Origin: Escherichia coli
GTDB lineage: Bacteria > Pseudomonadota > Gammaproteobacteria > Enterobacterales > Enterobacteriaceae
Length of the DNA: 64,000 nt
Assembly: GCF_044324785.1 (NCBI RefSeq)
Contig: NZ_CP172127.1
Reading direction: 5' to 3' (one strand)
The position numbers were made by a program, and so were the translations under genes. Of this stretch, positions 7,772 to 39,423 are shown piece after piece (the first letter of the stretch is position 1; every line of letters starts with the position of its first letter). The notes under the pieces are model-generated. The model did no database searches, was not told the DNA's origin, and saw only the letters and a program-made list of their open reading frames with translations.

Positions 7772-8126
7772 TTTACATCTCTCCGCGTAATTACTGTTAC
7801 GCCTGAATGACTTCATTACACCTGATACAGTGAGTTGACACCGGGCAAAACGACCTTAAAAGTCCTGTATTTTACCGTGGGCATCACCCCAGAATTCTGA
7901 GCTAAACTGCTCCAGACGGCGCTAATGTACGCCTAAAACTGAAACGAGACAAGAGGCATTTTCTTATTTACTTTTAGTAACTTACAGGTGTCTCATATCG
8001 GCGACAGTTTAATTTCTGGCGGTAATAATTAGAGATTCAGCGAAGGAAAAAACCTTAAGAAAAAAGCCATAAAAACCATGAGGTTATTATGGCTGATTTG
8101 AGGAGGGAAAGAGTAAGAGCAGTTTG

Positions 8127-9047
8127 TTAAATGTATAACGACGATTCACCCACCGGGCGCGTTTTAAAGCGACGGTGGATCCAGAGGTACTGCTCCGGCG
8201 CGCGCATGATCTCTTTCTCGATAATCTTGTTCATATAGGCAGCGGCTTGATTTTCATCTGCCGGGTAGCCTTCCATCTCTGGGGTGATGTACAAACGATA
8301 TCCGCTGTAATCCGCTTTTCTTACCATCGTTACGGTTAACATGGCTGCGCCAGAGAGACGTGAAAGGACATACGTACCATTGGTTGTGGCGACATTTTCC
8401 ACCGCAAAGAACGGCGCGAAGGAGCTGCCTTTACGACCATAATCCTGATCGGGAGCAAACCATACCGCTTCACCTTTCTTCAGTGCACCGACAATGCCGC
8501 GTAGATTATTTCTGCCGATCATCGCTTTGTTAGAGCGCATGCGCCCACGGGTCTGCACCCATTCCATCAGCTGATTATTATGTGGACGATAGGTAGCCAT
8601 CATTGGTTGACAAAGTCCCATCACGCGGCCGCCCAGTTCCAGCGACATAAAATGGACGCCGACAACCATTACGCCGCGATTTTGCATTTGTGCGCGTTTA
8701 AGGTTATCCAGTCCTTCAACATCAAACCATTTGCGTACGCGACTGTCGGGCCAGAACCACGCCATGCCGGTTTCTACCAGCGCCATGCCGAGTGAACGAA
8801 AGTTTTCGGCAATCATCTTCTCGCGTTCTTCCGCAGAATGCTGCGGGAAGCAAAGTTCCAGGTTTTTACGGGCGATAGATTCACGCCGTTTCAGGAATGG
8901 TCGCGCCATTGCGCCAATACGCGTGCCGAGAAAGCAGAGAACAGGATAAGGAAGCTGTACCCAAAGCCAGAGTACACCAAGCCCAAACCATGTGAGCCAG
9001 TAGCGAGGATGTAGAAACTCGCGGGAAAATTTGCATTGTGGAAACAT
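8127..9047 (-). CDS. lpxP: lipid A palmitoleoyltransferase (cold-induced)
   Basis: ORF 8127-9113 contains the LpxP sequence; N-terminus MFPQCKFSREFLHPRYW places the start at 9047 (306 aa). Confidence 0.9.
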   Translation of the reverse strand: MFPQCKFSREFLHPRYWLTWFGLGVLWLWVQLPYPVLCFLGTRIGAMARPFLKRRESIARKNLELCFPQHSAEEREKMIAENFRSLGMALVETGMAWFWPDSRVRKWFDVEGLDNLKRAQMQNRGVMVVGVHFMSLELGGRVMGLCQPMMATYRPHNNQLMEWVQTRGRMRSNKAMIGRNNLRGIVGALKKGEAVWFAPDQDYGRKGSSFAPFFAVENVATTNGTYVLSRLSGAAMLTVTMVRKADYSGYRLYITPEMEGYPADENQAAAYMNKIIEKEIMRAPEQYLWIHRRFKTRPVGESSLYI

Positions 9048-9399
9048 AGTTACCTTCTGTAGATACGAATTGTTGTATCGCAGAAGATTCCATGTCGACA
9101 GCGGTACACTCAATTGGTTGGGCCATCATGTACGACAATGGTTCCTGTAAAGAGTGTAAAGACTAGTCAGGACATAACCACGAGGAGCATGAATGCGGTG
9201 GCTCTACTTTATCACTGGCTGACTGCTTTCAGCTACTGATTATTAATCGTGCAAAGTAAATATTTTTCCGCACGCAATAGCGTTGCATTTAACGTGCTGT
9301 TTTCATTGATGCTTAGCAAAAATTGCCAGAGGTTAAGGATTGTCTTACTATTAAAGTGACTGAAGTTACAGGTTTTTTAGCGCGGCAGGAGGTTGAGCT

Positions 9400-9642
9400 A
9401 TGATTTATTTATGGATGTTTCTCGCCCTGTGTATTGTCTGCGTAAGCGGCTACATTGGTCAGGTCCTGAACGTGGTATCGGCGGTCTCTTCTTTCTTCGG
9501 CATGGTGATCCTCGCTGCACTCATTTATTACTTCACCATGTGGTTAACTGGCGGTAATGAACTGGTGACGGGGATATTTATGTTTCTTGCCCCGGCTTGT
9601 GGCTTGATGATTCGCTTTATGGTGGGGTATGGCAGGCGCTAG
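9400..9642 (+). CDS. yfdY: small inner membrane protein YfdY
   Basis: 80-aa hydrophobic ORF in the expected position between lpxP and ypdI. Confidence 0.75.
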   Translation: MIYLWMFLALCIVCVSGYIGQVLNVVSAVSSFFGMVILAALIYYFTMWLTGGNELVTGIFMFLAPACGLMIRFMVGYGRR

Positions 9643-9718
9643 TGGGTCAGGATGGTTCATTTGGGCAGGTGTTCACATCAGCATCAGGCATGATTGTTCA
9701 CCTGCCATGTGACAGACG

Positions 9719-9994
9719 CTATCGCACAGGATGGATAAGATAATTCGCCTTTGTCGGAAAAGGGGGCGGAATTTCTTCTGTGAGGTTTAATGGTGGCGCA
9801 TCTTCTCTCAACTTAAACAAAATCGCCTGTGATGGCTGAAGTTTTGTAGAATGAGTTGTCGTCATCACTGACGTTTTTTCTGTCTCTTTATAGCTCGTCT
9901 CACTTCCACCACCAGAAATAGAAAATGCAAAAACATTGCATGCCATAATAGAGACCAATAAAAATAAGCTAAAAAGCATTAAGTTTACTTTCAT
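9719..9994 (-). CDS. ypdI: lipoprotein YpdI
   Basis: 91-aa ORF with signal peptide and lipobox-like motif (LLVSIMAC); position matches ypdI. Confidence 0.75.
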   Translation of the reverse strand: MKVNLMLFSLFLLVSIMACNVFAFSISGGGSETSYKETEKTSVMTTTHSTKLQPSQAILFKLREDAPPLNLTEEIPPPFPTKANYLIHPVR

Positions 9995-10135
9995 AGAAAG
10001 TTATCCTGAAAATGGTTCACTGAAAACCTACGACGTTATGGCTGTATTTACATATAATTAATCAGTATTTACATCGATATAATAAATGACATCTCTTTTT
10101 GGTATATAAGAATAGTTCTCTGTGACAGGAAGCAT

Positions 10136-10153
10136 ATTCCTACAATTGTAAGA
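10136..10153. promoter_or_regulatory. putative EvgA box upstream of yfdX
   Basis: TTCCTACA-AT-TGTAAGAC matches the 18-bp EvgA inverted-repeat consensus TTCPyTACA-N2-TGTAPuGAA as I recall it; about 135 bp upstream of the yfdX start. Confidence 0.6.
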
Positions 10154-10289
10154 CTAAAATACTTCTTGCGATAATAACTACAGCTGTAAGATAACCCTTT
10201 CAAAATGACCGTTGCTCTCTGATTTCTCATTTCATGCTCACCCAATATGATGGCGGCGTTTTCTAAAACTGTTAAAGAATGAGGTAAGT

Positions 10290-10922
10290 ATGAAACGTTT
10301 AATTATGGCTACGATGGTCACAGCAATTCTGGCATCTTCAACTGTATGGGCGGCTGATAATGCACCGGTAGCGGCACAACAGCAAACTCAGCAAGTTCAG
10401 CAAACCCAGAAAACGGCAGCAGCAGAGCGTATCTCTGAACAAGGTTTATATGCGATGCGTGACGTGCAGGTAGCGCGCCTGGCTCTGTTTCATGGCGATC
10501 CGGAAAAGGCAAAAGAACTGACCAATGAAGCTTCAGCTTTGTTGTCAGATGACAGTACCGAATGGGCAAAGTTCGCTAAGCCAGGTAAAAAGACCAATCT
10601 CAATGATGACCAATATATTGTCATTAATGCATCTGTCGGAATTTCTGAGAGTTATGTAGCGACACCCGAAAAAGAAGCCGCGATAAAAATTGCCAACGAA
10701 AAAATGGCGAAAGGGGATAAAAAGGGCGCAATGGAAGAGCTTCGCCTGGCCGGTGTTGGCGTAATGGAAAACCAATATCTGATGCCGCTTAAACAGACTC
10801 GTAATGCACTTGCTGATGCGCAGAAACTGCTTGATAAAAAGCAATACTACGAGGCAAACCTGGCGCTTAAAGGTGCTGAAGATGGAATCATCGTCGATAG
10901 CGAAGCACTGTTTGTGAACTAA
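10290..10922 (+). CDS. yfdX: periplasmic protein YfdX (EvgA-regulated)
   Basis: 210-aa ORF with N-terminal signal peptide; position and sequence consistent with YfdX. Confidence 0.88.
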
Positions 10923-11165
10923 AGCTGACAGGCAATATATTGAGGTAAAGGATTTAACTCCCTCCAGCCGACAATTTTTTATGACCACAATACGACAGGT
11001 TGTGGTCATAAAATTATTTGGCGCTCGCGGTTCTATAAACTCGCATTTTATCTTCCTCAAAGTAACCCGCAATAATTCCGTGTCATCACAAATCATTTAT
11101 TATGTTATGCTTTATGGTACGCTTTAAAAAGCGTAATCATACCCTTACTTGTAAATCACCGGCGC

Positions 11166-11183
11166 TTCTTACAGTTGTAAGAA
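11166..11183. promoter_or_regulatory. putative EvgA box of the frc-oxc-yfdV-yfdE promoter
   Basis: TTCTTACA-GT-TGTAAGAA is a perfect match to the EvgA inverted-repeat consensus; about 250 bp upstream of the frc start codon at 11435. Confidence 0.65.
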
Positions 11184-11446
11184 TAACATCACAAATGTCG
11201 CGGCTCTCTCTGATTACCGCGAACCAATATTTATCATATTCTTCTTTTCGTCCTCACTACTTACCATGCAGAAAGGAATTGGAAGTGGCGATGAAATGAT
11301 TATCAGCACTTGATACAGGAATTTAAAAATATCGAGTGCAGCTACGACGATATTTTGCGGATTATTTATAGAGAGCGTTATGCCTTAAATAAACGCTAAA
11401 TTAACATATATTTAATTAACTAATAGGTATTGCTATGTCAACTCCA

Positions 11447-11455
11447 CTTCAAGGA
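11447..11455. repeat. 9-bp target site duplication (left copy) of the IS903 insertion
   Basis: CTTCAAGGA immediately left of the IS, identical to 12513-12521. Confidence 0.9.
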
Positions 11456-11473
11456 GGCTTTGTTGAATAAATC
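11456..11473. repeat. IS903 terminal inverted repeat (transposase-distal end)
   Basis: GGCTTTGTTGAATAAATC, perfect reverse complement of 12495-12512. Confidence 0.9.
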
Positions 11474-11511
11474 AGATTTCGGGTAAGTCTCCCCCGTAGC
11501 GGGTTGTGTTT

Positions 11512-12435
11512 TCAGGCAATACGCACGCTTTCAGGCATACCTGCTTTCGTCATTTTGTTCAGCGCTCGTACCAGGGCCATAGCCTCCGCAACCTGACCAT
11601 CGTAGTCACGCAGCGTCAGTGAACCCCCGAACAGCTGTTTTACCCGGTACATCGCCGTTTCCGCTATCGAGCGACGGTTGTAATCTGTTGTCCATTTCCA
11701 CCGCGCATTACTCCCGGTCATTCGCTGATTAGCCACTGCACGGTTACGGTCTGCATATTCACCGGGCCAGTAACCCGCACCTTTTCGGGGAGGGATAAGC
11801 GCGCTGATTTTCTTACGCCGCAGTTCATCGTGACATAGCCGGGTATCGTAAGCGCCATCGGCGGCGGCTGACCTGATTTTCCGGTGGGTTTGCCGGATTA
11901 ACCCGGGGAAGGCCTCTGAGTCCGTAACGTTGTTCAGCGACAGGTCAGCGCAGATGATTTCATGTGTTTTACTGTCAACGGCGAGATGCAGCTTACGCCA
12001 GATACGGCGGCGTTCCTGGCCATGCTTTTTGACTTTCCACTCGCCTTCACCGAAGACCTTCAGCCCGGTGGAATCAATTACCAGGTGTGCGATTTCACCC
12101 CGGGTGGGCGTTTTGAAACTGACATTAACCGACTTTGCCCGCCTGCTGACACAGCTGTAATCCGGGCAGCGTAGCGGAACGTTCATCAGAGAAAAAATGG
12201 AATCAATAAAGCCCTGCGCAGCCCGCAGGGTCAGCCTGAATACGCGTTTAATGACCAGCACAGTAGTGATGGCAAGGTCAGAATAGCGCTGAGGTCTGCC
12301 TCGTGAAGAAGGTGTTGCTGACTCATACCAGGCCTGAATAGCTTCATCATCCAGCCAGAAAGTTATGGAGCCACGGTTGATGAGGGCTTTATTGTAGGTG
12401 GGCCAGTTGGTGATTTTGAACTTTTGCTTTGCCAC
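11512..12435 (-). CDS. IS903 transposase (DDE, IS5 family)
   Basis: Translation ...AKQKFKITNWPTYNKALINRGSITFWLDDEAIQAWYE...MPESVRIA matches the IS903 transposase; likely GTG start at 12435 gives 307 aa, whereas the track ORF begins at an upstream in-frame ATG at 12480. Confidence 0.9.
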   Translation of the reverse strand: MAKQKFKITNWPTYNKALINRGSITFWLDDEAIQAWYESATPSSRGRPQRYSDLAITTVLVIKRVFRLTLRAAQGFIDSIFSLMNVPLRCPDYSCVSRRAKSVNVSFKTPTRGEIAHLVIDSTGLKVFGEGEWKVKKHGQERRRIWRKLHLAVDSKTHEIICADLSLNNVTDSEAFPGLIRQTHRKIRSAAADGAYDTRLCHDELRRKKISALIPPRKGAGYWPGEYADRNRAVANQRMTGSNARWKWTTDYNRRSIAETAMYRVKQLFGGSLTLRDYDGQVAEAMALVRALNKMTKAGMPESVRIA

Positions 12436-12494
12436 GGAACGGTCTGCGTTGTCGGGAAGATACGTGATCTGATCCTTCAACTCAGCAAAAGTTC

Positions 12495-12512
12495 GATTTA
12501 TTCAACAAAGCC
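12495..12512. repeat. IS903 terminal inverted repeat (transposase-proximal end)
   Basis: GATTTATTCAACAAAGCC, reverse complement of 11456-11473. Confidence 0.9.
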
Positions 12513-12521
12513 CTTCAAGGA
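12513..12521. repeat. 9-bp target site duplication (right copy) of the IS903 insertion
   Basis: CTTCAAGGA identical to 11447-11455; a 9-bp duplication is what I recall for IS903. Confidence 0.9.
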
Positions 12522-13804
12522 ATTAAAGTTCTCGATTTCACCGGTGTGCAATCTGGCCCATCTTGTACTCAGATGCTGGCCTGGTTTGGCGCTGACGTCA
12601 TTAAAATTGAACGTCCCGGCGTTGGTGACGTAACGCGTCACCAGCTGCGAGATATTCCTGATATCGATGCGCTTTACTTCACCATGCTTAACAGTAACAA
12701 ACGTTCTATTGAATTAAATACCAAAACAGCGGAAGGCAAAGAGGTAATGGAAAAGCTGATCCGCGAAGCTGATATCTTAGTCGAGAACTTTCATCCAGGG
12801 GCCATTGATCACATGGGCTTCACCTGGGAGCATATTCAAGAAATCAATCCACGTCTGATTTTTGGTTCGATCAAAGGGTTTGATGAGTGTTCGCCTTATG
12901 TGAATGTAAAAGCCTATGAAAACGTTGCTCAGGCAGCGGGTGGTGCGGCATCCACTACAGGTTTTTGGGACGGCCCGCCGCTGGTAAGCGCTGCAGCGTT
13001 GGGTGACAGCAACACCGGAATGCATTTGCTGATCGGTTTACTTGCTGCTTTGCTGCATCGCGAAAAAACGGGGCGTGGGCAACGAGTTACCATGTCAATG
13101 CAGGATGCCGTGTTGAACCTTTGCCGCGTGAAATTACGCGACCAGCAGCGTCTCGATAAGTTGGGGTATCTGGAAGAATACCCGCAGTATCCGAATGGCA
13201 CATTTGGTGATGCAGTTCCCCGCGGTGGTAATGCGGGTGGTGGCGGTCAGCCTGGCTGGATCCTGAAATGTAAAGGCTGGGAAACCGATCCTAATGCCTA
13301 TATTTATTTCACTATTCAGGAGCAAAACTGGGAAAACACCTGTAAAGCTATCGGCAAACCAGAATGGATTACCGATCCGGCATATAGTACAGCTCATGCC
13401 CGACAGCCACATATTTTCGATATTTTTGCTGAAATCGAAAAATACACTGTCACTATTGATAAACATGAAGCGGTGGCCTATTTGACTCAGTTTGATATTC
13501 CTTGTGCACCGGTTTTAAGTATGAAAGAAATTTCACTTGATCCCTCTTTGCGCCAAAGTGGCAGTGTTGTCGAAGTGGAACAACCGTTGCGTGGAAAATA
13601 TCTGACAGTTGGTTGTCCAATGAAATTCTCTGCCTTTACGCCGGATATTAAAGCTGCGCCGCTATTAGGTGAACATACCGCTGCTGTATTGCAGGAGTTG
13701 GGTTATAGCGACGATGAAATTGCTGCAATGAAGCAAAACCACGCCATCTGATATTAACGGGGGCTTCTGGCTCCCAATTTATAAAAATTTCGAGGTTATT
13801 AATC

Positions 13805-15499
13805 ATGTCAGATCAACTTCAAATGACAGATGGTATGCATATCATCGTTGAAGCATTAAAACAGAATAATATTGACACTATTTATGGTGTTGTAGGTATT
13901 CCTGTGACGGATATGGCACGCCATGCCCAGGCGGAAGGCATTCGTTATATTGGTTTTCGTCATGAGCAGTCGGCAGGCTATGCCGCTGCGGCAAGCGGTT
14001 TTCTTACCCAAAAACCAGGGATCTGCCTGACAGTGTCTGCGCCAGGATTCCTCAATGGTTTGACCGCATTGGCCAACGCAACGGTAAATGGTTTTCCGAT
14101 GATCATGATTAGCGGCTCCAGCGACCGCGCGATCGTCGACCTACAGCAAGGTGATTATGAAGAGCTGGACCAAATGAATGCGGCAAAACCGTATGCCAAA
14201 GCAGCATTCCGCGTTAATCAGCCGCAGGATCTTGGCATTGCATTGGCACGCGCTATCCGGGTCTCAGTATCGGGTCGCCCTGGCGGAGTTTATCTTGATT
14301 TGCCTGCAAATGTCCTGGCCGCGACGATGGAAAAAGACGAAGCGTTAACCACGATTGTAAAAGTTGAAAATCCGTCGCCAGCATTATTGCCATGCCCGAA
14401 GTCAGTCACTAGCGCAATTTCGCTTTTAGCAAAAGCTGAACGGCCATTAATTATCCTTGGCAAAGGCGCGGCGTATTCACAAGCTGATGAACAGCTTCGT
14501 GAATTTATTGAAAGTGCTCAGATCCCATTCCTGCCAATGTCTATGGCGAAAGGGATCCTCGAAGATACGCATCCACTTTCTGCGGCAGCTGCGCGTTCGT
14601 TTGCCCTGGCAAATGCTGACGTTGTCATGCTTGTTGGTGCACGACTGAATTGGTTACTGGCGCACGGTAAAAAAGGATGGGCGGCAGATACACAGTTTAT
14701 TCAACTGGAAATTGAACCGCAGGAAATTGACAGCAACCGCCCCATTGCTGTGCCAGTCGTTGGTGATATTGCATCCAGTATGCAAGGTATACTGGCAGAA
14801 TTGAAACAAAACACATTTACGACTCCACTGGTATGGCGCGATATTTTAAATATCCACAAGCAGCAAAATGCACAAAAAATGCATGAAAAATTAAGTACAG
14901 ATACTCAACCATTAAATTACTTTAATGCATTAAGTGCTGTGCGCGACGTATTGCGCGAGAACCAGGATATTTATTTAGTTAATGAAGGGGCAAATACCCT
15001 GGATAATGCACGAAATATTATTGATATGTATAAACCACGTCGTCGTCTGGATTGTGGCACCTGGGGTGTCATGGGCATCGGTATGGGCTATGCCATCGGT
15101 GCTAGCGTGACTTCTGGTTCTCCGGTTGTCGCCATTGAAGGTGATAGTGCTTTTGGTTTCAGTGGGATGGAGATTGAAACGATTTGTCGATATAACCTGC
15201 CGGTGACGATCGTTATTTTTAATAATGGCGGCATTTACAGAGGAGACGGTGTTGATCTCAGTGGCGCTGGTGCACCATCACCAACAGATCTATTGCACCA
15301 TGCAAGGTATGACAAATTAATGGATGCGTTTCGTGGCGTTGGCTATAACGTCACTACGACAGATGAACTTCGTCATGCTTTAACCACCGGTATTCAGTCG
15401 CGCAAACCGACCATTATTAATGTGGTCATCGACCCTGCAGCAGGAACTGAAAGTGGCCATATTACCAAACTTAACCCAAAACAAGTCGCTGGTAATTAA
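13805..15499 (+). CDS. oxc: oxalyl-CoA decarboxylase (thiamine diphosphate-dependent)
   Basis: 564-aa ORF recognised as Oxc; directly downstream of frc. Confidence 0.92.
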
Positions 15500-15567
15500 A
15501 TACTGACATCGTCTCCTCTTGCCAACTCATTATCGATGGTGAGGGGACCCTTATCGGAAATACTATT

Positions 15568-16512
15568 ATGCTAACATTTTTTATTGGCGATTTATTGCCT
15601 ATTATCGTAATCATGCTGTTGGGTTATTTTAGCGGCAGACGAGAAACTTTTTCAGAAGATCAAGCCCGGGCATTTAATAAACTGGTATTAAACTACGCTC
15701 TTCCTGCGGCTCTATTTGTATCTATTACCCGGGCAAACAGGGAAATGATTTTTGCGGACACTCGTCTGACCCTTGTATCACTTGTGGTTATTGTCGGATG
15801 TTTCTTTTTCTCCTGGTTCGGTTGCTACAAATTTTTTAAACGTACTCATGCAGAAGCAGCAGTATGTGCATTAATTGCAGGTTCACCTACCATTGGATTC
15901 CTGGGATTTGCAGTTCTCGATCCTATTTATGGTGATTCCGTATCAACAGGTTTAGTTGTAGCAATTATTTCTATTATTGTTAACGCAATTACTATTCCTA
16001 TTGGTCTGTATTTGCTGAATCCTTCCTCAGGAGCGGATGGTAAGAAGAATAGTAATCTGAGCGCATTAATTTCTGCGGCAAAGGAGCCAGTAGTATGGGC
16101 ACCTGTTCTGGCAACGATCCTGGTGTTGGTTGGGGTAAAAATTCCGTCAGCATGGGACCCAACCTTTAATCTGATTGCGAAGGCTAACTCAGGGGTAGCG
16201 GTATTCGCTGCGGGGTTGACTCTGGCTGCACATAAATTCGAGTTCAGTGCCGAAATTGCTTATAACACCTTCCTGAAGCTGATTCTGATGCCACTGGCGC
16301 TGCTTCTCGTTGGTATGGCATGTCATTTGAACAGCGAACATTTGCAGATGATGGTACTGGCAGGCGCTTTACCGCCGGCATTCTCCGGAATCATTATTGC
16401 CAGCCGGTTTAATGTCTACACCCGCACTGGTACAGCATCATTGGCTGTGAGCGTACTGGGCTTTGTCGTCACGGCTCCCTTGTGGATTTATGTCAGTCGA
16501 CTGGTTTCATAA
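15568..16512 (+). CDS. yfdV: AEC-family membrane transporter
   Basis: 314-aa polytopic membrane ORF between oxc and yfdE. Confidence 0.88.
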
Positions 16513-16585
16513 TTAATCATGTTATTGATTTTACATAAATGCCGAAGTGTCTTTTCACCTTCGGCTTTTTTCAAGGCATAAGCAA

Positions 16586-17731
16586 ATGACAAATAATGAA
16601 TGCAAAGGGCCGTTTGAAGGCTTATTAGTTATCGATATGACACATGTCCTTAATGGACCTTTCGGAACTCAACTTCTTTGTAATATGGGCGCAAGGGTAA
16701 TTAAAGTTGAGCCGCCGGGTCATGGTGATGATACCCGCACATTTGGTCCCTATGTGGATGGGCAGTCACTCTATTACAGTTTTATTAATCATGGCAAAGA
16801 GAGTGTGGTTCTTGATTTAAAGAATGCTCACGATAAAAGTATATTTATAAATATGCTTAAACAAGCTGATGTATTAGCTGAGAATTTTCGCCCAGGTACA
16901 ATGGAAAAACTGGGGTTTTCATGGGAAACGCTACAAGAAATCAACCCGCGTCTCATATATGCTTCATCGTCAGGTTTTGGGCATACCGGCCCGCTAAAAG
17001 ATGCTCCAGCCTACGATACCATCATTCAGGCAATGAGCGGGATAATGATGGAAACAGGGTACCCTGATGCTCCGCCAGTGCGCGTGGGTACCTCTCTTGC
17101 GGATTTATGTGGCGGTGTCTATTTATTCAGCGGAATAGTGAGTGCACTTTATGGCCGCGAAAAGAGCCAGAGAGGGGCGCATGTCGATATAGCGATGTTT
17201 GATGCCACGCTGAGTTTTCTGGAGCATGGTCTGATGGCATATATTGCGACAGGGAAGTCACCACAACGCCTGGGAAATCGCCATCCCTACATGGCACCTT
17301 TTGATGTTTTTGATACTCAGGATAAGCCGATTACGATTTGTTGTGGTAATGACAAGCTTTTTTCTGCGTTATGCCAGGCACTGGAGCTTACGGAACTGGT
17401 TAATGATCCCCGATTTAGCAGCAATATTTTACGCGTACAAAACCAGGCTATTCTTAAACAATATATTGAGCGAACGTTAAAAACACAGGCAGCTGAAGTT
17501 TGGTTAGCCAAAATACATGAAGTTGGTGTGCCCGTCGCGCCGTTATTAAGTGTGGCTGAGGCCATTAATTTGCCACAAACTCAGGCGAGAAATATGTTGA
17601 TTGAAGCCGGGGGAATAATGATGCCAGGTAATCCGATAAAAATCAGCGGCTGCGCGGACCCGCATGTTATGCCGGGAGCGGCAACGCTCGACCAGCATGG
17701 GGAACAAATTCGCCAGGAATTCTCATCGTAA
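16586..17731 (+). CDS. yfdE: CoA-transferase family III protein (acetyl-CoA:oxalate CoA-transferase)
   Basis: Track ORF 16547-17731; the YfdE N-terminus MTNNECKGPFEGLLVIDMTH puts the start at 16586 (381 aa); paralogous to Frc. Confidence 0.88.
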   Translation: MTNNECKGPFEGLLVIDMTHVLNGPFGTQLLCNMGARVIKVEPPGHGDDTRTFGPYVDGQSLYYSFINHGKESVVLDLKNAHDKSIFINMLKQADVLAENFRPGTMEKLGFSWETLQEINPRLIYASSSGFGHTGPLKDAPAYDTIIQAMSGIMMETGYPDAPPVRVGTSLADLCGGVYLFSGIVSALYGREKSQRGAHVDIAMFDATLSFLEHGLMAYIATGKSPQRLGNRHPYMAPFDVFDTQDKPITICCGNDKLFSALCQALELTELVNDPRFSSNILRVQNQAILKQYIERTLKTQAAEVWLAKIHEVGVPVAPLLSVAEAINLPQTQARNMLIEAGGIMMPGNPIKISGCADPHVMPGAATLDQHGEQIRQEFSS

Positions 17732-17753
17732 ATGTTAGATATGCTGGTAAATA

Positions 17754-17780
17754 GCTCCCACATTTGAACATTGTGGGAGC
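17754..17780. terminator. hairpin between convergent yfdE and evgS (probable bidirectional terminator)
   Basis: GCTCCCACA (17754-17762), 9-nt loop, TGTGGGAGC (17772-17780); T-rich sequence on the plus-strand side only moderately convincing. Confidence 0.5.
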
Positions 17781-17786
17781 CGCTAT

Positions 17787-20700
17787 TTAGTCATTTTGTT
17801 GACAGAAAACAGCAATCTCCTGGTCTAACTCTGCAATGTGTTCTTTAACAGAGTTCAGCAACTTAAGAATTTCAGGCTTGCTGTCATCTGAAACGGGCGT
17901 TATTTCTAACTGATGGCTAATATTAATCAACTTTTGCAAATTCAGGATGTTAGCCGCACCGTGGATGCGATGAATACACTGATGGAAAGTTCTGTTGTCG
18001 CCAGCTTCTAGTGCATGAAACGCAGCGGGTAGATCTTTATGCGTTTCATGCTGGAAAGTCATGAGAATCTCCTGCATCAGTTGTAGATCGTTCGCCGTAT
18101 TATTTTTCAGGGCCTCGATATCAAGGTGGCGATACTGAGGTGCAATATGCGCAACCTGGTGTAACTGACTTAAATGTGTTTTCAGTACATCCAGGGTCAA
18201 CGGTTTGAACAAACATAAGTTCATGCCGCAATTTAACCCTTTTTCACGTTCGTTAGCCTGTGCGTTGGCTGTAAGCCCCCAGATGGGTAAGGAAGAATTT
18301 TGCTCACGGAGTTTGCGAGTCAACTCAAAACCATCCATATTCGGCATATTAACGTCAGTAATAAGCAGATCATAATGTTGCATACTGACTTTGTGTAGCG
18401 CTTGCACACCATCAGTTGCTTCATCAACATCATATCCTAATAGGTTTAGCTGGCGTTTGAGTAATAGCCTGTTGGTCGGATGATCATCCGCTATTAATAT
18501 GCTCAACTTTTCAGGGAGTGTCATAGGTTGTTCTGCTTTTGCCTCGACAGTCGCCACTTGTTGGGTAATTTCTACCGGGATTGTGATCGTAAATGTCGTT
18601 CCTATGCCTGGATGACTTTCTAATGATAAATCGCCCTGCATGTTTTTAATTAATTCTTTGCAGATCATTAAGCCTAAACCAGAACCTGTTTGCTGACGAC
18701 CTGCACTTGTTTGGCTATAGCGTTTAAACAGTTGTTGTTGTTCTTCCTGCGATAATCCACTTCCAGAATCCATAATCGTCATTTTGATAACAGCGTGGTT
18801 GTCATCAATGTGACCCAGGGAGGTCGTAATTTTTACTGCCCCCTCGGTAGTAAATTTAAGAGCATTGCTCAGTAAATTAGATAAGACCTGCTTAAACGCC
18901 TGAGGGTCGATCTTAACCTGGTAATGTTCTGGAAACGTACTGCTGCAACTTAATGCGATGGATTTGCTTGCAGCAATCGCACCGAAAGAGTGACAAGTGT
19001 TCTGGACTAAAGTAGGGATGTCGACCCATTGTGGTTGAAGTTGATAGTTACCCGACTCAATTTTGTCGACATCAAGGATTTCACCAATTAAGCCGAGGAG
19101 TGATTGTCCGGTGGCGTAGGCAAGTGAAATCGCCTCCACCCGTTGCTCCTTGCTAAGACCAGAACCCGACAGAAGTTCGAGGAAGCCCATAATGGAGCTT
19201 ATTGGTGTTCTTATTTCGTGACTCATTGTTGCCAGAAACTGGCTTTTTGCGACAGTTGCATTGATCGCTTTATTTCTCTCTACTTCGAGTGCATGAATTA
19301 AATCACGCGTCTCGGTAATATCTTGCCAACCACAAATATAAACAGCATGATCGCTGGCTGGCAGATTGCATAATGTATGCCAGTGATTAATGCATCTTTT
19401 CTCGATGCCATTATCAATTTCAAATACCTGTGTGTATATTGTTCGATTTTCTTTCGTTTCTGCTGTGACTTCATGCGCATTAGAAAAAACATCTTTAAAG
19501 GGTGAGTCACTGTTTTCTAATGGTAACATTGCATTTTTGTAGTAATCCGCAGTGAAATAATGTTCAAAAGCACTATTATGACTAATGACATTACCTTGCC
19601 AGTTTACAACATAAGTTGGATTCGGTAAGGAATCCGAGAGTGCTTTTCGGAATGATATTTGGTTTTCTAAATCACCCTGAATGACTTTACGACGACGAAC
19701 TGAGCGTAACAGGTAGAATCCCCATAAAAGGCTACTGCCAACTAATAAAACGGATAATGTCGTGACAATATAAAATTGCTCGCTATAGAGGTCCCATGTG
19801 TCAATGGTCACATTGGGCATTTTAATCCATTTTTCCGTCAGGCGCAGAACTTCGCTTGGGGGAATTGCATTCAGTGCTTTATTAATAATATCCTTAAGTT
19901 CCGGTTCTCCGCGAGGAAAAGCGAACGAAAGCGATGCATTCTGAACGCCGGGAATAAGAAAATGATAAAGTTCATTAGGATAGTAATGGTCGATCATGTA
20001 ACGCGAATTTAGCTGTGTCGCGACCAGAGCATCAAGTTCACCTTCCTTGACCTTGTGAAATGCAGCACTAGCGTTATCGACTTTTATCCACTCTACCTCC
20101 GGATACATCTCTTTTAATTGCGAATGAAGCTCATAATAATATGGAATGGCAACTTTCATTCCTTTTTTTAATGTTTGTTCACTGTCAGGCGCTTTTTGCA
20201 TGACAAAAACGTAAGGCGTTGTTATGAAGGCTTCAGCAAATGAAACATTATTTTCTCGATCTTCACTATAAATAGCGGCGGGCAATATATCCCATCCACC
20301 GGGGTTAAGCTGTGTCCCCGCATGAATATTGTGTGAAACGGTGATCGGAGAAAAATTTAAACCTGTTTGCAAGGTAATAATATTAAGAATATCACCCATC
20401 ACGCCCCGAACTGAGCCAGTTTCATCTGTCATAGAATAGGGTGGCGAGTAAGGATTTTCCAGCACCTTTAAATCGGGATGCTGCTTAATCCACTGTTTTT
20501 CATGTTCAGTGAGTTCTAATGGTTTGTTCAGAAAGGCCAGGTTTCCTGTATCAAGCCAATTTTGTGATACTTCATAGCGAACTTCATTTGTTAAAGCATC
20601 AACAAACCGATTGAGTACTTCATTAAGAACGACTGAATCTTTTCTGGTTAAGAAAAAGTTATATTGACGCGGCGAGTTATAATATTTCACTACATTTAAG

Positions 20701-21380
20701 GAGTGAGTGAAATAGCGGGAAATCATACTGCTGGTAATAATGTTACTACCAATAAAGTAATCATTCTGTCCGGCTGAGACGGATGCTAATGCCTGATATA
20801 AATTTGTAAAAGAGATAATTGTTGCTTTTGGAAATGATTGATGAATTACCTCGTCTGGAGGGTAATTTGCTACCCGAGCAATATTTACTGGTTTTGATGA
20901 GGTAAGCGGTCTCATTGAATCGTGAAGGGTGGTGACCAGCGCCGGAAAGGTAATTATCAGCGGTTTGGTTGCAGCAATGTCATCATTAAGAGGCGGCGAA
21001 GCAACTAAATGTGATAACACTATATCGACTTCACCTTCTTCCAGCGCGTCCATTGCTTTTTGATGATCGGCGTATTCCCGGAGTGTTAATTTGATATTTA
21101 ACGCTCTTTTTAAAAGATTTAAATAATCAGCATTAATACCACGAACCCGTTGCTGCGAATCGGTATGCAACAACGTAGCCGTTTGGGACTTGTGTACTGC
21201 AATCACAAGATTTTTTTTGCTCGCTAACCAACGTAATTCCTTGTTGCTCAGACGTAGTGGATCAAGTGTGACACGGTTGTTACTACTGATGCCACGATAT
21301 TCGATGTAATCTTCGTCTGCGAAACTTATGGTCGACCAAAGACCACAACAGAGAAGAAAAATATAGGGTAAAAACTTCAT
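17787..21380 (-). CDS. evgS: hybrid sensor histidine kinase EvgS (acid and drug resistance two-component system)
   Basis: 1197-aa ORF with periplasmic binding-protein-like domains, histidine kinase core, receiver and HPt domains; recognised as EvgS. Confidence 0.95.
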   Translation of the reverse strand: MKFLPYIFLLCCGLWSTISFADEDYIEYRGISSNNRVTLDPLRLSNKELRWLASKKNLVIAVHKSQTATLLHTDSQQRVRGINADYLNLLKRALNIKLTLREYADHQKAMDALEEGEVDIVLSHLVASPPLNDDIAATKPLIITFPALVTTLHDSMRPLTSSKPVNIARVANYPPDEVIHQSFPKATIISFTNLYQALASVSAGQNDYFIGSNIITSSMISRYFTHSLNVVKYYNSPRQYNFFLTRKDSVVLNEVLNRFVDALTNEVRYEVSQNWLDTGNLAFLNKPLELTEHEKQWIKQHPDLKVLENPYSPPYSMTDETGSVRGVMGDILNIITLQTGLNFSPITVSHNIHAGTQLNPGGWDILPAAIYSEDRENNVSFAEAFITTPYVFVMQKAPDSEQTLKKGMKVAIPYYYELHSQLKEMYPEVEWIKVDNASAAFHKVKEGELDALVATQLNSRYMIDHYYPNELYHFLIPGVQNASLSFAFPRGEPELKDIINKALNAIPPSEVLRLTEKWIKMPNVTIDTWDLYSEQFYIVTTLSVLLVGSSLLWGFYLLRSVRRRKVIQGDLENQISFRKALSDSLPNPTYVVNWQGNVISHNSAFEHYFTADYYKNAMLPLENSDSPFKDVFSNAHEVTAETKENRTIYTQVFEIDNGIEKRCINHWHTLCNLPASDHAVYICGWQDITETRDLIHALEVERNKAINATVAKSQFLATMSHEIRTPISSIMGFLELLSGSGLSKEQRVEAISLAYATGQSLLGLIGEILDVDKIESGNYQLQPQWVDIPTLVQNTCHSFGAIAASKSIALSCSSTFPEHYQVKIDPQAFKQVLSNLLSNALKFTTEGAVKITTSLGHIDDNHAVIKMTIMDSGSGLSQEEQQQLFKRYSQTSAGRQQTGSGLGLMICKELIKNMQGDLSLESHPGIGTTFTITIPVEITQQVATVEAKAEQPMTLPEKLSILIADDHPTNRLLLKRQLNLLGYDVDEATDGVQALHKVSMQHYDLLITDVNMPNMDGFELTRKLREQNSSLPIWGLTANAQANEREKGLNCGMNLCLFKPLTLDVLKTHLSQLHQVAHIAPQYRHLDIEALKNNTANDLQLMQEILMTFQHETHKDLPAAFHALEAGDNRTFHQCIHRIHGAANILNLQKLINISHQLEITPVSDDSKPEILKLLNSVKEHIAELDQEIAVFCQQND

Positions 21381-21384
21381 GTGG

Positions 21385-21999
21385 TTAGCCGATTTTGTTA
21401 CGTTGTGCGAATGTGTAAAGATCCATCAGTGATTTACATTCTAATTTTTCCATCAGGCGACTTTTATAAGTGCTGACAGTTTTGTTGCTGATGAACATTT
21501 TTTCAGCAATGTCATTATTATCCTTGCCATCAAGAATATATCGCATGACACTAATTTCTTGTTTCGATAAGGAGTCGAGTTTTTGCTGGTCGGACGTTAA
21601 ACTTCCAACAAACCGGTTGAGAGAGAAGGGGAAATAGCAGTAGCCATTTTTTGCAGCTTCAATAGCCGCAATGATATTGTTCATGCCTTCTTTTTTACTC
21701 ACGAATCCATTAGCGCCAGCATCAGCACAATGTTTCCCGTAAAAATGGTCATTTTTAGCGGAGACGATAATAATAATTCCGCTATATTGACGCTTCCTTA
21801 GCGTTTCTAACACCTGGATACCGTTAACTCCGGGGATATCGACATCAATGATGACGATATCAGGCTTAAGTGTTTCCACCCGCTGAACGGCGCTTCCGCC
21901 TTCAGTCAACTCTGCTAAGATTTCAATATCGTTTTTGATCAATAAATTACGAATAGCTGCGATAGCAAGAGGATGGTCATCAATAATTATTGCGTTCAT
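21385..21999 (-). CDS. evgA: response regulator EvgA (LuxR/NarL family)
   Basis: 204-aa ORF MNAIIIDDHPLAIAAIRNLL... recognised as EvgA; directly upstream of evgS on the same strand. Confidence 0.95.
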   Translation of the reverse strand: MNAIIIDDHPLAIAAIRNLLIKNDIEILAELTEGGSAVQRVETLKPDIVIIDVDIPGVNGIQVLETLRKRQYSGIIIIVSAKNDHFYGKHCADAGANGFVSKKEGMNNIIAAIEAAKNGYCYFPFSLNRFVGSLTSDQQKLDSLSKQEISVMRYILDGKDNNDIAEKMFISNKTVSTYKSRLMEKLECKSLMDLYTFAQRNKIG

Positions 22000-22222
22000 A
22001 GATTATTCCCTTTGCAATGAAGCATCTCCCTTCTCCCTGTAGTAATACAGACATAAGGCATCATCTCATTTTCTCAATAAAAATAAGAAAATTTGAGCTT
22101 CCTTTAAGATAATTCGACAAGTATACCATATAAATAGTCGGCATAAATGAAATGTCAACAATAAAATCAGGGATTGTACCGATGATTTATAGTTTCACAT
22201 TAGCACTATAAGTCTTCTCACT

Positions 22223-22240
22223 AATCCTACAGGCGTAAGA
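22223..22240. promoter_or_regulatory. putative EvgA box in the evgA-emrK divergent intergenic region
   Basis: ATCCTACA-GG-CGTAAGAA, 16 of 18 matches to the EvgA consensus inverted repeat; lies between the divergent evgA and emrK genes. Confidence 0.55.
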
Positions 22241-22414
22241 ATTGTATTGCAAAAGCCACGGTTTAGTCCTCTGTTGTTTCTTTTGCACCTCATTTAAATT
22301 AGGCCTCCAACGTTCCTGGGATAATGTGCAACACATGCACTGTGTTTGATATGAAGAATGAATACTCTTTTCATTCAATTCATAAATTTCATCTATGCGA
22401 AATGAGAGATAATA

Positions 22415-33092: not shown

Positions 33093-34433
33093 TCAGAACG
33101 CGTAGTTAAAGTTAGTACCGAACAGCCAGGCTTTACCTTCTGACTCGAAGGAATAAGCTGCCGGTCCTTCACCTTCAGTAAACTTCACATTCTGACCGTG
33201 CATATAAGATGCACCAACGTCAATGGATGCATCTTCATTAAATGCGTAGGTTAACCCAGCACTTAACCACAAGCGATCCTGGTCAGGAATAGAAATAGAA
33301 CGTTTATCGGCCGGAACTGGGCTATCGTCATAGGCGATACCGGTACGGAAGGTCCAGTTTTTATCGTAATAGTAGGTTGTACCCAACGCGATACGATATG
33401 CGTCACGGAATCCTTCATCTTTATAGAACAGAGTCTGACCACTATCGCCTTTCGCTTTCAACTCCTGGAACTGGCTCCAACTGGTATAGGCCATGCTGTA
33501 GTGAATTGCCCACTGTGGCGCAACACGGTTATAACCAGAAATCTCCCACATCTCAGGTAAATTCAGCGTCAAGGACCCATTTTGGGTTGCACCCATTGTG
33601 CCATACGGTAAACCCATGCTACCCAAAATGTTGTTCAGATTTGGGTTAATGGAACTTTTGTAATCCCCTTCGAAGTCGATTTTAACTTCAGAACGATAGG
33701 TTAGGCCCCAACGGTTGTCTTTATCCAGTTCATAAAGAATACCCGCGTTCCAGCCAAAGCCCCATTCGTCACCTTTCAGATGAGCAATTTGAGAGTCCGG
33801 GGTATTAATACCATTGGTTAGTGAAGCGGGTACACCTTGGGCAATCAACTGTTGAGACAACAAAGGCCCCAGCGAACCGGCGTAACGCTCAATTTTTGCC
33901 TTAGCGTATACAGCATCAAAACCAAGACCAAAACTCCAGCTATTGTTAAGGCGATAGGCTCCGCTAAGGTTAAGGTTGATTGTTTGCAGATCGGTTTTAC
34001 CGCCATAGATTCCAGCAGCGTAGTTATCATTAAATTCCGTGGCCAGACCATAGTTCGAGGTAATAGAAGCCCCCCAACCAAACTGATCGTTAATAGGTGC
34101 TACGAAATGTAGATTAGGTACCCACGCAGTTGGTGCAATATTATCTGCATCAGCACGCTGGCCCGTTAAATCGGAACGCCCAGAAATATCTACATCCGGA
34201 TCAATATAAACCGCACCCGCAGAAAATGTCGGGCGGTCAAACATGGTAATCAATGCGGGGTTACGGCTAACGTTACCTGCATCATCGGCAATTGCACCTT
34301 CCCCTGAATAAGCCCGGCCCAGGCCAGAGGAAGAAAATTCGTTTAACTGAAAGCCTGCCGACCAGGCCTGGGTGGAGATAAGTGCCACTGCGACTGCGAG
34401 AGCAGACTTTGTAAACAGGGTTTTCTGGCTCAT
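33093..34433 (-). CDS. fadL: long-chain fatty acid outer membrane transporter
   Basis: Track ORF 33093-34439; the FadL N-terminus [29 protein letters not shown] puts the start at 34433; ends with the beta-barrel C-terminal motif NFNYAF. Confidence 0.95.
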
Positions 34434-34522
34434 GACCATAACCTCAATGATTTATTTTTATACAAACTATGTTACGTGCTGTAACAGGAGCGCGAAGTGT
34501 AGGGTCTGAGGTACATCTTAGA

Positions 34523-34559
34523 AATCAGACCAGTGGCGAGAGTATAGGTCGGACCAGCT
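34523..34559. promoter_or_regulatory. two putative FadR operator sites in the fadL promoter region
   Basis: 34544-34559 reverse complement AGCTGGTCCGACCTAT and 34523-34536 reverse complement CCACTGGTCTGATT resemble the FadR palindrome (CTGGTC-N-GACCAG type). Confidence 0.55.
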
Positions 34560-34804
34560 GGAATGTTGCAAGTATGTTTCTATCTTTTTTCAAATATGAT
34601 CTAAGAAACGCGATCCAGCTGGCAAAATTTGGAGGTGGCGCACTCATGGATTCGGGTGAATTTTGTTTTAGATCATTTTTAAGTGTGATTTCGGTCACTT
34701 ATCCGATTTTGCAGAATTAACAACTGGAGCAGCACTTTCCGGAAGCGTAAAATATCCACAACGTTTATCTGGCACCTTGGGTGCACATACAGAGGAAATC
34801 AACG

Positions 34805-35089
34805 ATGAGTAAATGTAGTGCTGATGAAACCCCGGTTTGCTGCTGTATGGATGTTGGCACCATTATGGACAACTCCGACTGCACCGCGTCTTACAGCCGC
34901 GTGTTTGCAAACCGCGCAGAAGCAGAACAAACGCTGGCGGCGCTGACTGAAAAAGCCCGTAGCGTGGAATCCGAACCGTGCAAAATCACCCCGACTTTCA
35001 CTGAAGAGTCTGACGGTGTGCGCCTGGATATCGATTTCACTTTTGCCTGCGAAGCTGAAATGCTGATCTTCCAGCTGGGTCTGCGTTAA
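34805..35089 (+). CDS. yfcZ: small protein YfcZ (UPF0381)
   Basis: Track ORF 34781-35089; the YfcZ N-terminus MSKCSADETPVCCCMDVGT puts the start at 34805 (94 aa). Confidence 0.88.
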   Translation: MSKCSADETPVCCCMDVGTIMDNSDCTASYSRVFANRAEAEQTLAALTEKARSVESEPCKITPTFTEESDGVRLDIDFTFACEAEMLIFQLGLR

Positions 35090-35106
35090 TTCCTCTCGGG
35101 TGCGTA

Positions 35107-35143
35107 CGCCCCTGTCAGTTGTTGGCAGGGGCGTTTTATTTTC
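35107..35143 (+). terminator. intrinsic terminator downstream of yfcZ
   Basis: CGCCCCTG (35107-35114), 11-nt loop, CAGGGGCG (35126-35133), then TTTTATTTT. Confidence 0.75.
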
Positions 35144-35226
35144 TCTTCTACTTTTCTCTCTGTGTCATAGCTCCCACTTTCCCTTTTCTCCACTTGGCTA
35201 AATGTAAAAAAATGGTTAAGACTATG

Positions 35227-35243
35227 ATCAGGTCAGACCACTT
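35227..35243. promoter_or_regulatory. putative FadR operator upstream of fadIJ
   Basis: Reverse complement AAGTGGTCTGACCTGAT closely matches the FadR operator palindrome; about 30 bp upstream of the fadI start. Confidence 0.6.
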
Positions 35244-35269
35244 TATTTATTATTTTACAGGGGAGTGTT

Positions 35270-36580
35270 ATGGGTCAGGTTTTACCGCTGGTTACCCGCC
35301 AGGGCGATCGTATCGCCATTGTTAGCGGTTTACGTACGCCTTTTGCCCGCCAGGCGACGGCTTTTCATGGCATTCCCGCGGTTGATTTAGGGAAGATGGT
35401 GGTAGGCGAACTGCTGGCACGCGGCGAAATTCCCGCCGAAGTGATTGAACAACTGGTCTTTGGTCAGGTCGTACAAATGCCGGAAGCCCCCAACATTGCG
35501 CGTGAAATTGTTCTCGGCACCGGAATGAATGTGCATACCGATGCTTACAGCGTCAGCCGCGCTTGCGCTACCAGTTTCCAGGCGGTTGCAAACGTCGCAG
35601 AAAGCCTGATGGCGGGAACTATTCGCGCGGGGATTGCCGGTGGGGCCGATTCCTCTTCCGTATTGCCAATTGGCGTCAGTAAAAAACTGGCGCGCGTGCT
35701 GGTTGATGTCAACAAAGCTCGAACCATGAGCCAGCGCCTGAAACTCTTCTCTCGCCTGCGTTTGCGCGACTTAATGCCCGTACCGCCTGCGGTAGCAGAA
35801 TATTCTACTGGCTTACGGATGGGCGACACCGCCGAACAAATGGCGAAAACCTACGGTATTACTCGCGAACAGCAAGATGCATTAGCGCACCGTTCGCATC
35901 AGCGAGCCGCTCAGGCCTGGTCAGACGGTAAACTCAAAGAAGAGGTGATGACTGCCTTTATCCCTCCTTATAAACAACCGCTTGCCGAAGACAACAATAT
36001 TCGCGGTAATTCCTCGCTTGCTGATTACGCAAAGTTGCGTCCGGCGTTTGATCGTAAACACGGGACGGTAACGGCAGCAAACAGTACGCCGCTGACCGAT
36101 GGCGCAGCGGCGGTGATCCTGATGACCGAATCGCGGGCGAAAGAATTAGGGCTGGTACCGCTGGGGTATCTGCGCAGTTACGCATTTACTGCGATAGATG
36201 TCTGGCAGGACATGTTGCTCGGTCCGGCCTGGTCAACGCCGCTGGCGCTGGAACGTGCCGGTTTGACAATGAGCGATCTGACATTGATCGATATGCACGA
36301 AGCCTTTGCAGCTCAGACACTGGCGAATATTCAGTTGCTGGGTAGCGAACGTTTTGCTCGTGATGTACTGGGGCGTGCACATGCCACTGGCGAAGTGGAC
36401 GATAGCAAATTTAACGTGCTTGGCGGTTCGATTGCTTACGGGCATCCCTTCGCGGCGACCGGCGCGCGGATGATTACCCAGACATTGCATGAACTTCGCC
36501 GTCGCGGCGGTGGATTTGGATTAGTGACCGCCTGTGCTGCGGGTGGGCTTGGCGCGGCAATGGTTGTGGAGGCGGAATAA
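35270..36580 (+). CDS. fadI: 3-ketoacyl-CoA thiolase (anaerobic beta-oxidation)
   Basis: 436-aa thiolase ORF recognised as FadI (YfcY). Confidence 0.95.
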
Positions 36581-39412: not shown

Positions 39413-39423
39413 TACGCATGCAC

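Follow-up and report, generated by a model that had tools for sequence, protein, structure and literature searches.

We predict, with high confidence, four operator boxes for EvgA, a response regulator of the NarL/FixJ type, in the 64-kb window (the whole stretch of Escherichia coli DNA analysed here, 64,000 nucleotides): two upstream of yfdX, one upstream of frc (yfdW) and one between the divergent evgA and emrK genes. All four lie within intergenic DNA upstream of a unit that is reported to be directly EvgA-dependent. They were searched for as the 18-bp pattern TTCYTACANNTGTARGAA, and their generalised form is an 8-2-8 inverted repeat, TTCYTACA-NN-TGTARGAA.

10137..10154, no strand assigned: predicted EvgA box 1, TTCCTACAATTGTAAGAC, 1 mismatch, distal yfdX site
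10175..10192, no strand assigned: predicted EvgA box 1b, TAACTACAGCTGTAAGAT, 3 mismatches, proximal and weaker yfdX site
11166..11183, no strand assigned: predicted frc (yfdW) EvgA box, TTCTTACAGTTGTAAGAA, 0 mismatches
22224..22241, no strand assigned: predicted evgA-emrK EvgA box in the divergent intergenic region, ATCCTACAGGCGTAAGAA, 2 mismatches

With up to two mismatches to TTCYTACANNTGTARGAA allowed, the 64-kb window holds three matches against 0.04 expected, a number reached in 0 of 100 shuffled windows; with up to three mismatches it holds four against 0.56 expected. A first-pass annotation had described inverted repeats at yfdX, frc and evgA-emrK, and all three are present, but its three-box cluster lacked the fourth box at 10175-10192. 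Two of its intervals, 10136-10153 and 22223-22240, are placed 1 nt too far left of the correct 10137-10154 and 22224-22241. In the correct frame, box 1 is self-complementary at 14/18 positions and the evgA-emrK box at 10/18, against only 4/18 in the earlier frame. The frc interval was correct as given, and the description of this site as a perfect palindrome holds for its two 8-bp arms, which are fully complementary, but not for the central GT, which breaks the symmetry and leaves 16/18. Box 1b lies 38 bp downstream of box 1, and all three of its mismatches fall in the outer parts of the arms, with the inner core CTACA-NN-TGTAAGA intact. Measured from the box centres, box 1 is 144.5 bp from the yfdX ATG, the frc box 260.5 bp from the frc ATG, and the evgA-emrK box 182.5 bp from the emrK start and 233.5 bp from the evgA start. 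A further degenerate box upstream of the frc box (CTTACTTGTAAA, ~11144-11158) was rejected, as it has the wrong spacing and is not conserved in L004, a divergent Escherichia genome.

The boxes are set among the following genes and features; frc itself is described further below.

10290..10922, plus strand: yfdX, EvgA-activated (open reading frame; Pfam YfdX, E=2.9e-44; annotated in syntenic E. coli loci)
10977..11013, plus strand: terminator-like hairpin in the yfdX-frc gap, a 15-bp stem and then a T-rich tail
13805..17731, plus strand: oxc, yfdV and yfdE, which follow frc in its operon (open reading frames; syntenic annotation)
17787..21380, minus strand: evgS, sensor kinase of 1197 aa, intact, with 26 differences from K-12
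21385..21999, minus strand: evgA, response regulator of 204 aa, with a receiver domain and a LuxR/GerE helix-turn-helix
22415..25116, plus strand: emrK and emrY, EvgA-activated efflux pump genes (open reading frames; annotation)

The EvgA encoded in the window matches that of K-12 at 100% identity; its Pfam domains are Response_reg and GerE (GerE E=2.8e-22). The hairpin between yfdX and frc has a folding energy of -19.6 kcal/mol (z = -6.5) and carries a compensatory A-U to G-C change in strain 165. Since this hairpin splits yfdX and frc into separate transcription units, frc-oxc-yfdV-yfdE needs a box of its own. An Rfam scan of 8000-26000, including the long frc and emrK leaders, detected no known RNA elements.

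We found no EvgA consensus or box sequence in print in the literature searched, a body of work that the original site-mapping papers stand outside, and therefore validated the consensus empirically on K-12 safA, ydeP and yegR. The consensus, which came with the first-pass annotation, is borne out by matches upstream of these other direct EvgA targets, with one mismatch at safA, two at ydeP and one at yegR. We then scanned the window with a symmetrised matrix built only from these three K-12 boxes, all of them outside the window. The frc box scores 22.2 bits, the evgA-emrK box 19.1, box 1b 16.1 and box 1 15.1, and these are exactly the top four matches in the window, with the next at 10.5 bits. 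The best score among 50 shuffles was 17.5 bits with this 3-site matrix, above the scores of boxes 1 and 1b, so that each of these two predictions, taken alone, carries less certainty than that of the frc or the emrK box.

In 10 other Escherichia genomes, including one whose EvgS is only 91% identical, the syntenic positions carry these four boxes and no further ones. A search of genome contigs with EvgS gave mostly paralogous hybrid kinases among the matches listed (BarA-like, ~34% identity), and one of these matches, L004, offered a usable true orthologous locus. Footprinting was based on L004 and nine E. coli genomes, and polymorphism was counted in ten genomes, namely the window and the nine E. 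coli. In this set of ten, 0/64 arm positions are polymorphic, compared with 112/1150 flanking intergenic positions (9.7%; p=0.003) and 4/8 positions of the central NN (p=7e-5 against the arms). Judged by these counts, the box arms are under purifying selection. Box 1 varies among the 11 Escherichia genomes at central position 10146 only, its arms being invariant throughout, while in the window and the nine E. coli genomes box 1b has invariant arms and two polymorphic central positions. The frc box is identical across these ten genomes and differs in L004 at a central base only, where TTCTTACAGCTGTAAGAA forms a true 18/18 palindrome. The arms of the evgA-emrK box are likewise invariant in the ten, and in the L004 version, TTCCTACAGGTGTAAGAA, both deviant positions are back at consensus. 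Box 1, the frc box and the emrK box of K-12 are base-for-base those of the window; box 1b differs in its central dinucleotide only, GC in the window versus AC in K-12. Most strains have two yfdX boxes; strain MEI008 and the 0H strains have three, and the three copies of the 38-bp unit in MEI008 mark it as duplication-prone.

A TANNNT hexamer starts 53-54 nt after the box at 6/6 promoters, those of yfdX (counted from box 1b), frc and emrK in the window and of safA, ydeP and yegR in K-12, and 0/5000 shuffles reached 6/6 at a common offset. From this spacing we infer that the box centre lies near -75. The putative promoter elements in the window are as follows.

10246..10251, plus strand: putative -10 of the yfdX promoter, TATGAT, beginning 54 nt after box 1b (promoter scan TTCTCA-16-TATGAT)
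11232..11242, plus strand: candidate -10 region of the frc promoter (TATCAT 11232-11237, TATTCT 11237-11242)
22295..22300, plus strand: putative -10 of the emrK promoter, TAAATT, at the common 53-54 nt offset

Box 1, 38 bp further upstream, is the exception to the common register. We also considered a common register for the evgA-emrK box in the direction of evgA and rejected it, as TANNNT occurs there 55 and 70 nt from the box centre rather than 62-63. The uniform box-to-promoter spacing could sharpen the prediction of EvgA sites.

In this genome, frc is a pseudogene disrupted by an IS903-type element. The insertion, which separates the frc box from most of frc, was absent from the first-pass annotation.

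11435..11455, plus strand: 5' stub of frc, codons 1-7, reading into the element as MSTPLQGGFVE*
11456..12512, minus strand: IS903-type element of 1057 bp interrupting frc, with 97.6% identity to the IS903B annotated in strain 165
11512-12480, minus strand: IS903 transposase (Pfam DDE_Tnp_1_5 and DDE_Tnp_1)
12513..13751, plus strand: rest of frc from residue 5 on, start codon lost, no amino-acid differences from K-12 Frc

The element ends in 18-bp terminal inverted repeats, GGCTTTGTTGAATAAATC, and is flanked by a 9-bp target duplication, CTTCAAGGA, at 11447-11455 and 12513-12521. The break lies 271 bp downstream of the frc box. With IS903 inserted after codon 7, there is no intact gene left for the frc box to drive; a transcript started there cannot yield Frc, and polar effects on oxc-yfdV-yfdE are probable. 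This lineage has therefore probably lost, or altered, the acid tolerance that depends on oxalate and is ascribed to Frc/Oxc. The other outputs, yfdX and emrKY, should be intact. What is predicted to be the strongest EvgA-controlled promoter here now feeds a broken frc. None of 5,426 complete E. coli genomes has the same IS903-frc junction; six apparent full-length junction matches proved to be a different insertion, ~115 bp further into frc.

Published work on K-12 places EvgA directly at these genes. According to PMC3720670, which cites Masuda & Church 2003, EvgA binds inverted repeats in inducing yfdX and yfdWUVE, and PMC5706723, citing Kato 2000, places PemrK and PyfdX under direct EvgA control. 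For K-12, binding of phosphorylated EvgA and loss of activation on box mutation are reported (Kato 2000 and Masuda & Church 2003, as cited in PMC5706723 and PMC3720670). Every directly regulated gene carries an EvgA site, and in an evgS-constitutive strain frc is induced most strongly (PMC4283999). This induction and the top matrix score of the frc box are in keeping with the earlier suggestion that it may be the site of highest affinity. These papers, the safA/ydeP/yegR matrix, the constraint on the arms and the K-12-identical EvgA together support the earlier reading of the repeats as EvgA operators beside evgAS. The accompanying idea that the regulon is clustered around evgAS stands for the boxes described here but does not extend to the whole regulon: in K-12, safA-ydeO/ydeP and yegR lie ~0.9 and 0.3 Mb from evgA (safA/ydeP at 1.58 Mb, yegR at 2.17 Mb, evgA at 2.48 Mb).

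We weighed these predicted EvgA operators against other explanations. Chance similarity, in AT-rich intergenic DNA, to a consensus that may be mistaken, with no regulatory role, draws on a consensus that was not found in print in the literature searched and on a 3-site matrix weak enough for shuffled windows to reach the maximum given above. It is effectively refuted, and we give it almost no weight, as the excess of matches over expectation is set beside the same pattern at three independent known targets, boxes kept in place in 10 other genomes, their arms spared the polymorphism of the flanks, and a -10-like hexamer at a fixed distance in six promoters. It is also very improbable that the boxes are operators of another LuxR/NarL-family regulator (for example RcsB- or BvgA-like) sharing TTCYTA/TARGAA, with EvgA acting only indirectly. 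The TTCCTA/TAAGAA hexamer does resemble the RcsB box as well, and the assignment to EvgA rests here on sequence. The hexamer also makes up the optimal BvgA site, TAAGAAATTTCCTA (PMC7250471), but in the window's boxes the hexamers are outermost in an 8-2-8 arrangement around TACA-NN-TGTA, whereas the paired heptads of BvgA abut, and the boxes stand specifically at reported direct EvgA targets, including the intergenic region of evgA itself (PMC3720670, PMC5706723, PMC4283999).

The remaining alternative concerns box 1b: only the three strong boxes would be EvgA sites, and 10175-10192 would be a decayed, non-functional copy from an old 38-bp tandem duplication. Its three outer-arm mismatches and the duplication-prone 38-bp unit suit such an origin, and the conservation of its arms is not significant when taken alone (0/16 polymorphic versus ~1.6 expected in the window and nine E. 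coli). We nevertheless consider decay unlikely, since box 1b ranks third in the window by the external matrix, above box 1, retains its inner core, is kept in the divergent L004 genome and, instead of box 1, occupies the common 53-54 nt offset from TATGAT.

For four EvgA operators, activation could proceed as follows. Phosphorylation of EvgA by the kinase EvgS at mildly acidic pH, which is established, would be the first step. An EvgA dimer would then occupy each box, one LuxR-type helix-turn-helix domain per arm, as suggested by the domains of EvgA and by the dyad symmetry of the boxes. Centred ~75 bp upstream of the start, the dimer may recruit or stabilise sigma-70 RNA polymerase at promoters with a weak -35, a role to which the fixed spacing between box and -10 points. 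Box 1b, the frc box and the emrK box would act in the common register, and box 1, 38 bp further upstream, is probably a higher-affinity auxiliary site. More tentatively, and with the odds against it, PyfdX may be a modular array of 38-bp units with one EvgA box each, in which box 1b activates in register, box 1 is an upstream helper and copy number tunes the acid response, and several lineages may be in the course of losing the oxalate module that follows the strongest box. That loss is suggested by repeated, independent IS903 insertions in the oxalate module (in the window, strain 165 and the 0H strains) and by a frameshift of yfdE in O157.

That EvgA boxes stand at yfdX, frc (yfdW) and emrK/evgA is already known; they have been textbook annotation of the K-12 regulon since 2000-2003. 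The gain for annotation is the corrected register of two sites and a conserved fourth candidate box at 10175-10192. Compared with the K-12 EvgA boxes (yfdX, yfdW, emrK/evgA, ydeP, safA (b1500) and yegR), those of the window have the same genes, positions and 18-bp sequences and an identical regulator; they differ in that frc is split by IS903 and in the GC, not AC, at the centre of box 1b. BvgA, the closest well-studied EvgA homologue, shares the hexamer TTCCTA/TAAGAA at the primary site of Bordetella Pfha (PMC7250471), and also binds as head-to-head dimers to arrays of strong and weak sites upstream of a promoter. Its arrays have a periodicity of 22 bp, versus 38 bp between the two yfdX boxes, and its hexamers abut at the dyad, whereas those of the EvgA boxes flank the TACA-NN-TGTA core. 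The window's boxes depart from a BvgA-type inverted heptad (TAAGAAA abutting TTTCCTA), with a 6-bp core, ACA-NN-TGT, between their outermost hexamers. NarL operators are '7-2-7' sites, inverted half-sites 2 bp apart bound by a dimer with receiver and GerE/LuxR-type helix-turn-helix domains. The half-site of NarL is TACYYMT, as against TTCYTACA for EvgA, and its sensor and regulon differ too. The window's boxes are also inverted half-sites spaced by 2 bp, EvgA has the same pair of receiver and GerE domains, and this 8-2-8 geometry with the GerE domain agrees with a dimer operator of the NarL/FixJ type.

Scanning the 64-kb window with the pattern TTCYTACANNTGTARGAA, an 18-bp inverted repeat with two 8-bp arms around a central dinucleotide, yields three candidate EvgA operators with two or fewer mismatches; 0.04 are expected, and 0/100 dinucleotide-preserving shuffles reach three. 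At up to three mismatches the window contains four matches versus 0.56 expected, the added one being box 1b, 38 bp downstream of box 1 in front of yfdX.

Candidate EvgA boxes in the window
10137-10154, yfdX box 1, TTCCTACAATTGTAAGAC, 1 mismatch
10175-10192, yfdX box 1b, TAACTACAGCTGTAAGAT, 3 mismatches
11166-11183, frc box, TTCTTACAGTTGTAAGAA, 0 mismatches
22224-22241, evgA-emrK box, ATCCTACAGGCGTAAGAA, 2 mismatches

The first-pass annotation, which had reported the three stronger sites, is confirmed in substance, with small fixes to register and symmetry. All three are present beyond chance, but its first and third intervals lie one base too far left. It had also called the frc box (frc is yfdW) a perfect palindrome, which is incorrect: the 8-bp arms are fully complementary, but the central GT breaks the symmetry, leaving 16/18 positions self-complementary. 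Self-complementarity is 14/18 for box 1 and 10/18 for the evgA-emrK box in the right frame, and only 4/18 in the frame first given.

Open reading frames and annotated syntenic loci give the Escherichia gene order lpxP-yfdY-ypdI-yfdX-frc-oxc-yfdV-yfdE / evgS-evgA / emrK-emrY.

Genes around the boxes
10290-10922, plus strand, yfdX
11435 (ATG), plus strand, frc
13805-15499, plus strand, oxc
15568-16512, plus strand, yfdV
16547-17731, plus strand, yfdE
17787-21380, minus strand, evgS
21385-21999, minus strand, evgA
22415-23578, plus strand, emrK
23578-25116, plus strand, emrY

A 9-codon evgL-type leader ORF (MLHCKGNNL*; 21996-22025, minus strand) overlaps the evgA start by ATGA; its K-12 counterpart is the annotated evgL (b4781), in a region nearly invariant in the alignment. 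Against 5,426 complete E. coli genomes, window 9500-23500 and 30000-42000 reach no more than about 97-99% identity, so the window's lineage (Escherichia, or else Shigella or a cryptic clade) has no close representation among them. A 551-bp contig labelled Terrisporobacter petrolearius (L005) encodes part of an EvgS that matches the window's at 96% identity; Escherichia DNA contaminating this Firmicute assembly is the likeliest source.

Since no printed EvgA consensus was found in the literature searched, the pattern was tried on targets outside the window. It held up in K-12 MG1655, matching 112 bp upstream of safA (TTCTTACAGCTGTAGGCA, one mismatch), 244 bp upstream of ydeP (two mismatches) and 107 bp upstream of yegR (TTCCTACATAAGTAGGAA, one mismatch). 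The weight-matrix scan also bears out the boxes: a symmetrised matrix built from these three sites alone and run over the 64-kb window ranks exactly the four boxes on top (22.2, 19.1, 16.1 and 15.1 bits; fifth, 10.5). Shuffled windows score a median of 12.8 and a maximum of 17.5 bits with this small three-site matrix, so both yfdX boxes are less certain when judged by score only.

Ten other Escherichia genomes, among them K-12, O157:H7, an O25b:H4 strain and the divergent Escherichia L004 (EvgS only 91% identical), carry these four boxes at syntenic positions and no further ones; box 1, the frc box and the emrK box are identical in K-12. Across the window and nine E. coli, 0/64 arm positions are polymorphic, compared with 112/1150 in flanking intergenic DNA (Fisher p=0.003) and 4/8 in the central dinucleotides (p=7e-5 versus arms). 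Including L004, the counts become 3/64, 240/1150 (p=0.0006) and 5/8. Two of the three L004 arm changes make its emrK box a perfect consensus, TTCCTACAGGTGTAAGAA, and its frc box is fully palindromic (18/18). Constraint thus follows the positions that carry the motif's information.

The central dinucleotides (10145-10146, 10183-10184, 11174-11175 and 22232-22233) are themselves unusually polymorphic in the window and nine E. coli (4/8 versus 9.7% of flanking intergenic positions, p=0.005), possibly through absent constraint or recombination between 38-bp units. Strain MEI008 (L089, 12643-12736) has a 38-bp tandem duplication of the box unit, so that three EvgA boxes precede yfdX, one of them the hybrid TAACTACAATTGTAAGAC; strain 0H26 (L090) has three boxes by a 38-bp box-unit duplication too, in a 333-bp ypdI-yfdX spacer. 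The +38 bp allele occurs in about 2/30 evenly spaced E. coli records.

The window's EvgA, with a receiver domain and a LuxR/GerE helix-turn-helix domain, is 100% identical to that of K-12, and its DNA specificity should therefore be the same as in K-12; EvgS has its full length and carries 26 substitutions. In all six box-bearing promoters (yfdX with box 1b, frc and emrK in the window; safA, ydeP and yegR in K-12), a TANNNT hexamer oriented to the regulated gene starts 53-54 nt after the box, a spacing that 0/5000 shuffles reach in six (maximum, four). This fixed spacing suggests a common architecture, with the box centre probably ~75 bp upstream of the transcription start, from where an EvgA~P dimer contacting both arms would activate sigma-70 RNA polymerase. 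At yfdX, the weaker box 1b would hold the common register, with box 1 38 bp further upstream; on the evgA side, the shared evgA-emrK box falls outside it. A stable terminator-like hairpin with a T-rich tail follows yfdX (10977-11013; -19.6 kcal/mol, z = -6.5); in strain 165 an A-U pair of its stem is replaced by G-C, a compensatory change. The hairpin would explain why frc-oxc-yfdV-yfdE has its own box.

That operon is interrupted. A 1057-bp IS903-type element (11456-12512; 97.6% identical to annotated IS903B) with 18-bp terminal inverted repeats, a minus-strand DDE transposase and a 9-bp target duplication (CTTCAAGGA, 11447-11455 and 12513-12521) splits frc after codon 7, leaving the stub MSTPLQGGFVE*. 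The EvgA box with the top score thus has no intact frc left to drive, and the insertion is probably polar on oxc-yfdV-yfdE. Beyond the element, frc encodes the same amino acids as in K-12, which makes the insertion look recent; its junction is absent from the 5,426 complete E. coli genomes. The same small region has taken independent IS903B insertions in other strains: strain 165 has one at the start of yfdX (L001, 2306-3363), and strains 0H15-0H26 have one about 115 bp inside frc (L090, 2712-3680). In O157:H7 strain Z852 (L084, 18030-19171), yfdE is annotated as frameshifted, a further sign that the oxalate operon under EvgA control is decaying in some lineages.

The EvgA-box interpretation is supported, the sites matching published EvgA-regulated yfdX, frc and emrK. 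The Fig. 2 legend of PMC3720670, citing Masuda & Church 2003, states that inverted repeats bound by EvgA induce yfdX and yfdWUVE; PemrK and PyfdX serve as reporters directly regulated by EvgA (PMC5706723, citing Kato 2000 and a further reference); and an EvgA site is present at all directly regulated genes, frc being the most strongly induced in an evgS-constitutive strain (PMC4283999). With EvgA sites published at yfdX, yfdWUVE and emrK, these boxes were already known and are here correctly re-identified. Mildly new are only four points: a fourth box that is conserved, a -10-like hexamer at a uniform distance from the boxes, duplication of the 38-bp box unit in some strains, and a frc gene broken by IS903.

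The proposal that the regulon clusters around its regulator holds for the yfdX, frc and emrK sites near evgAS, but not for K-12 safA-ydeO and ydeP (1.58 Mb) or yegR (2.17 Mb), far from evgA (2.48 Mb). In geometry, the boxes resemble the 7-2-7 sites of NarL. The optimal BvgA site, TAAGAAATTTCCTA, has the hexamer TTCCTA/TAAGAA in common with the EvgA boxes, but its hexamers are arranged the opposite way (PMC7250471).
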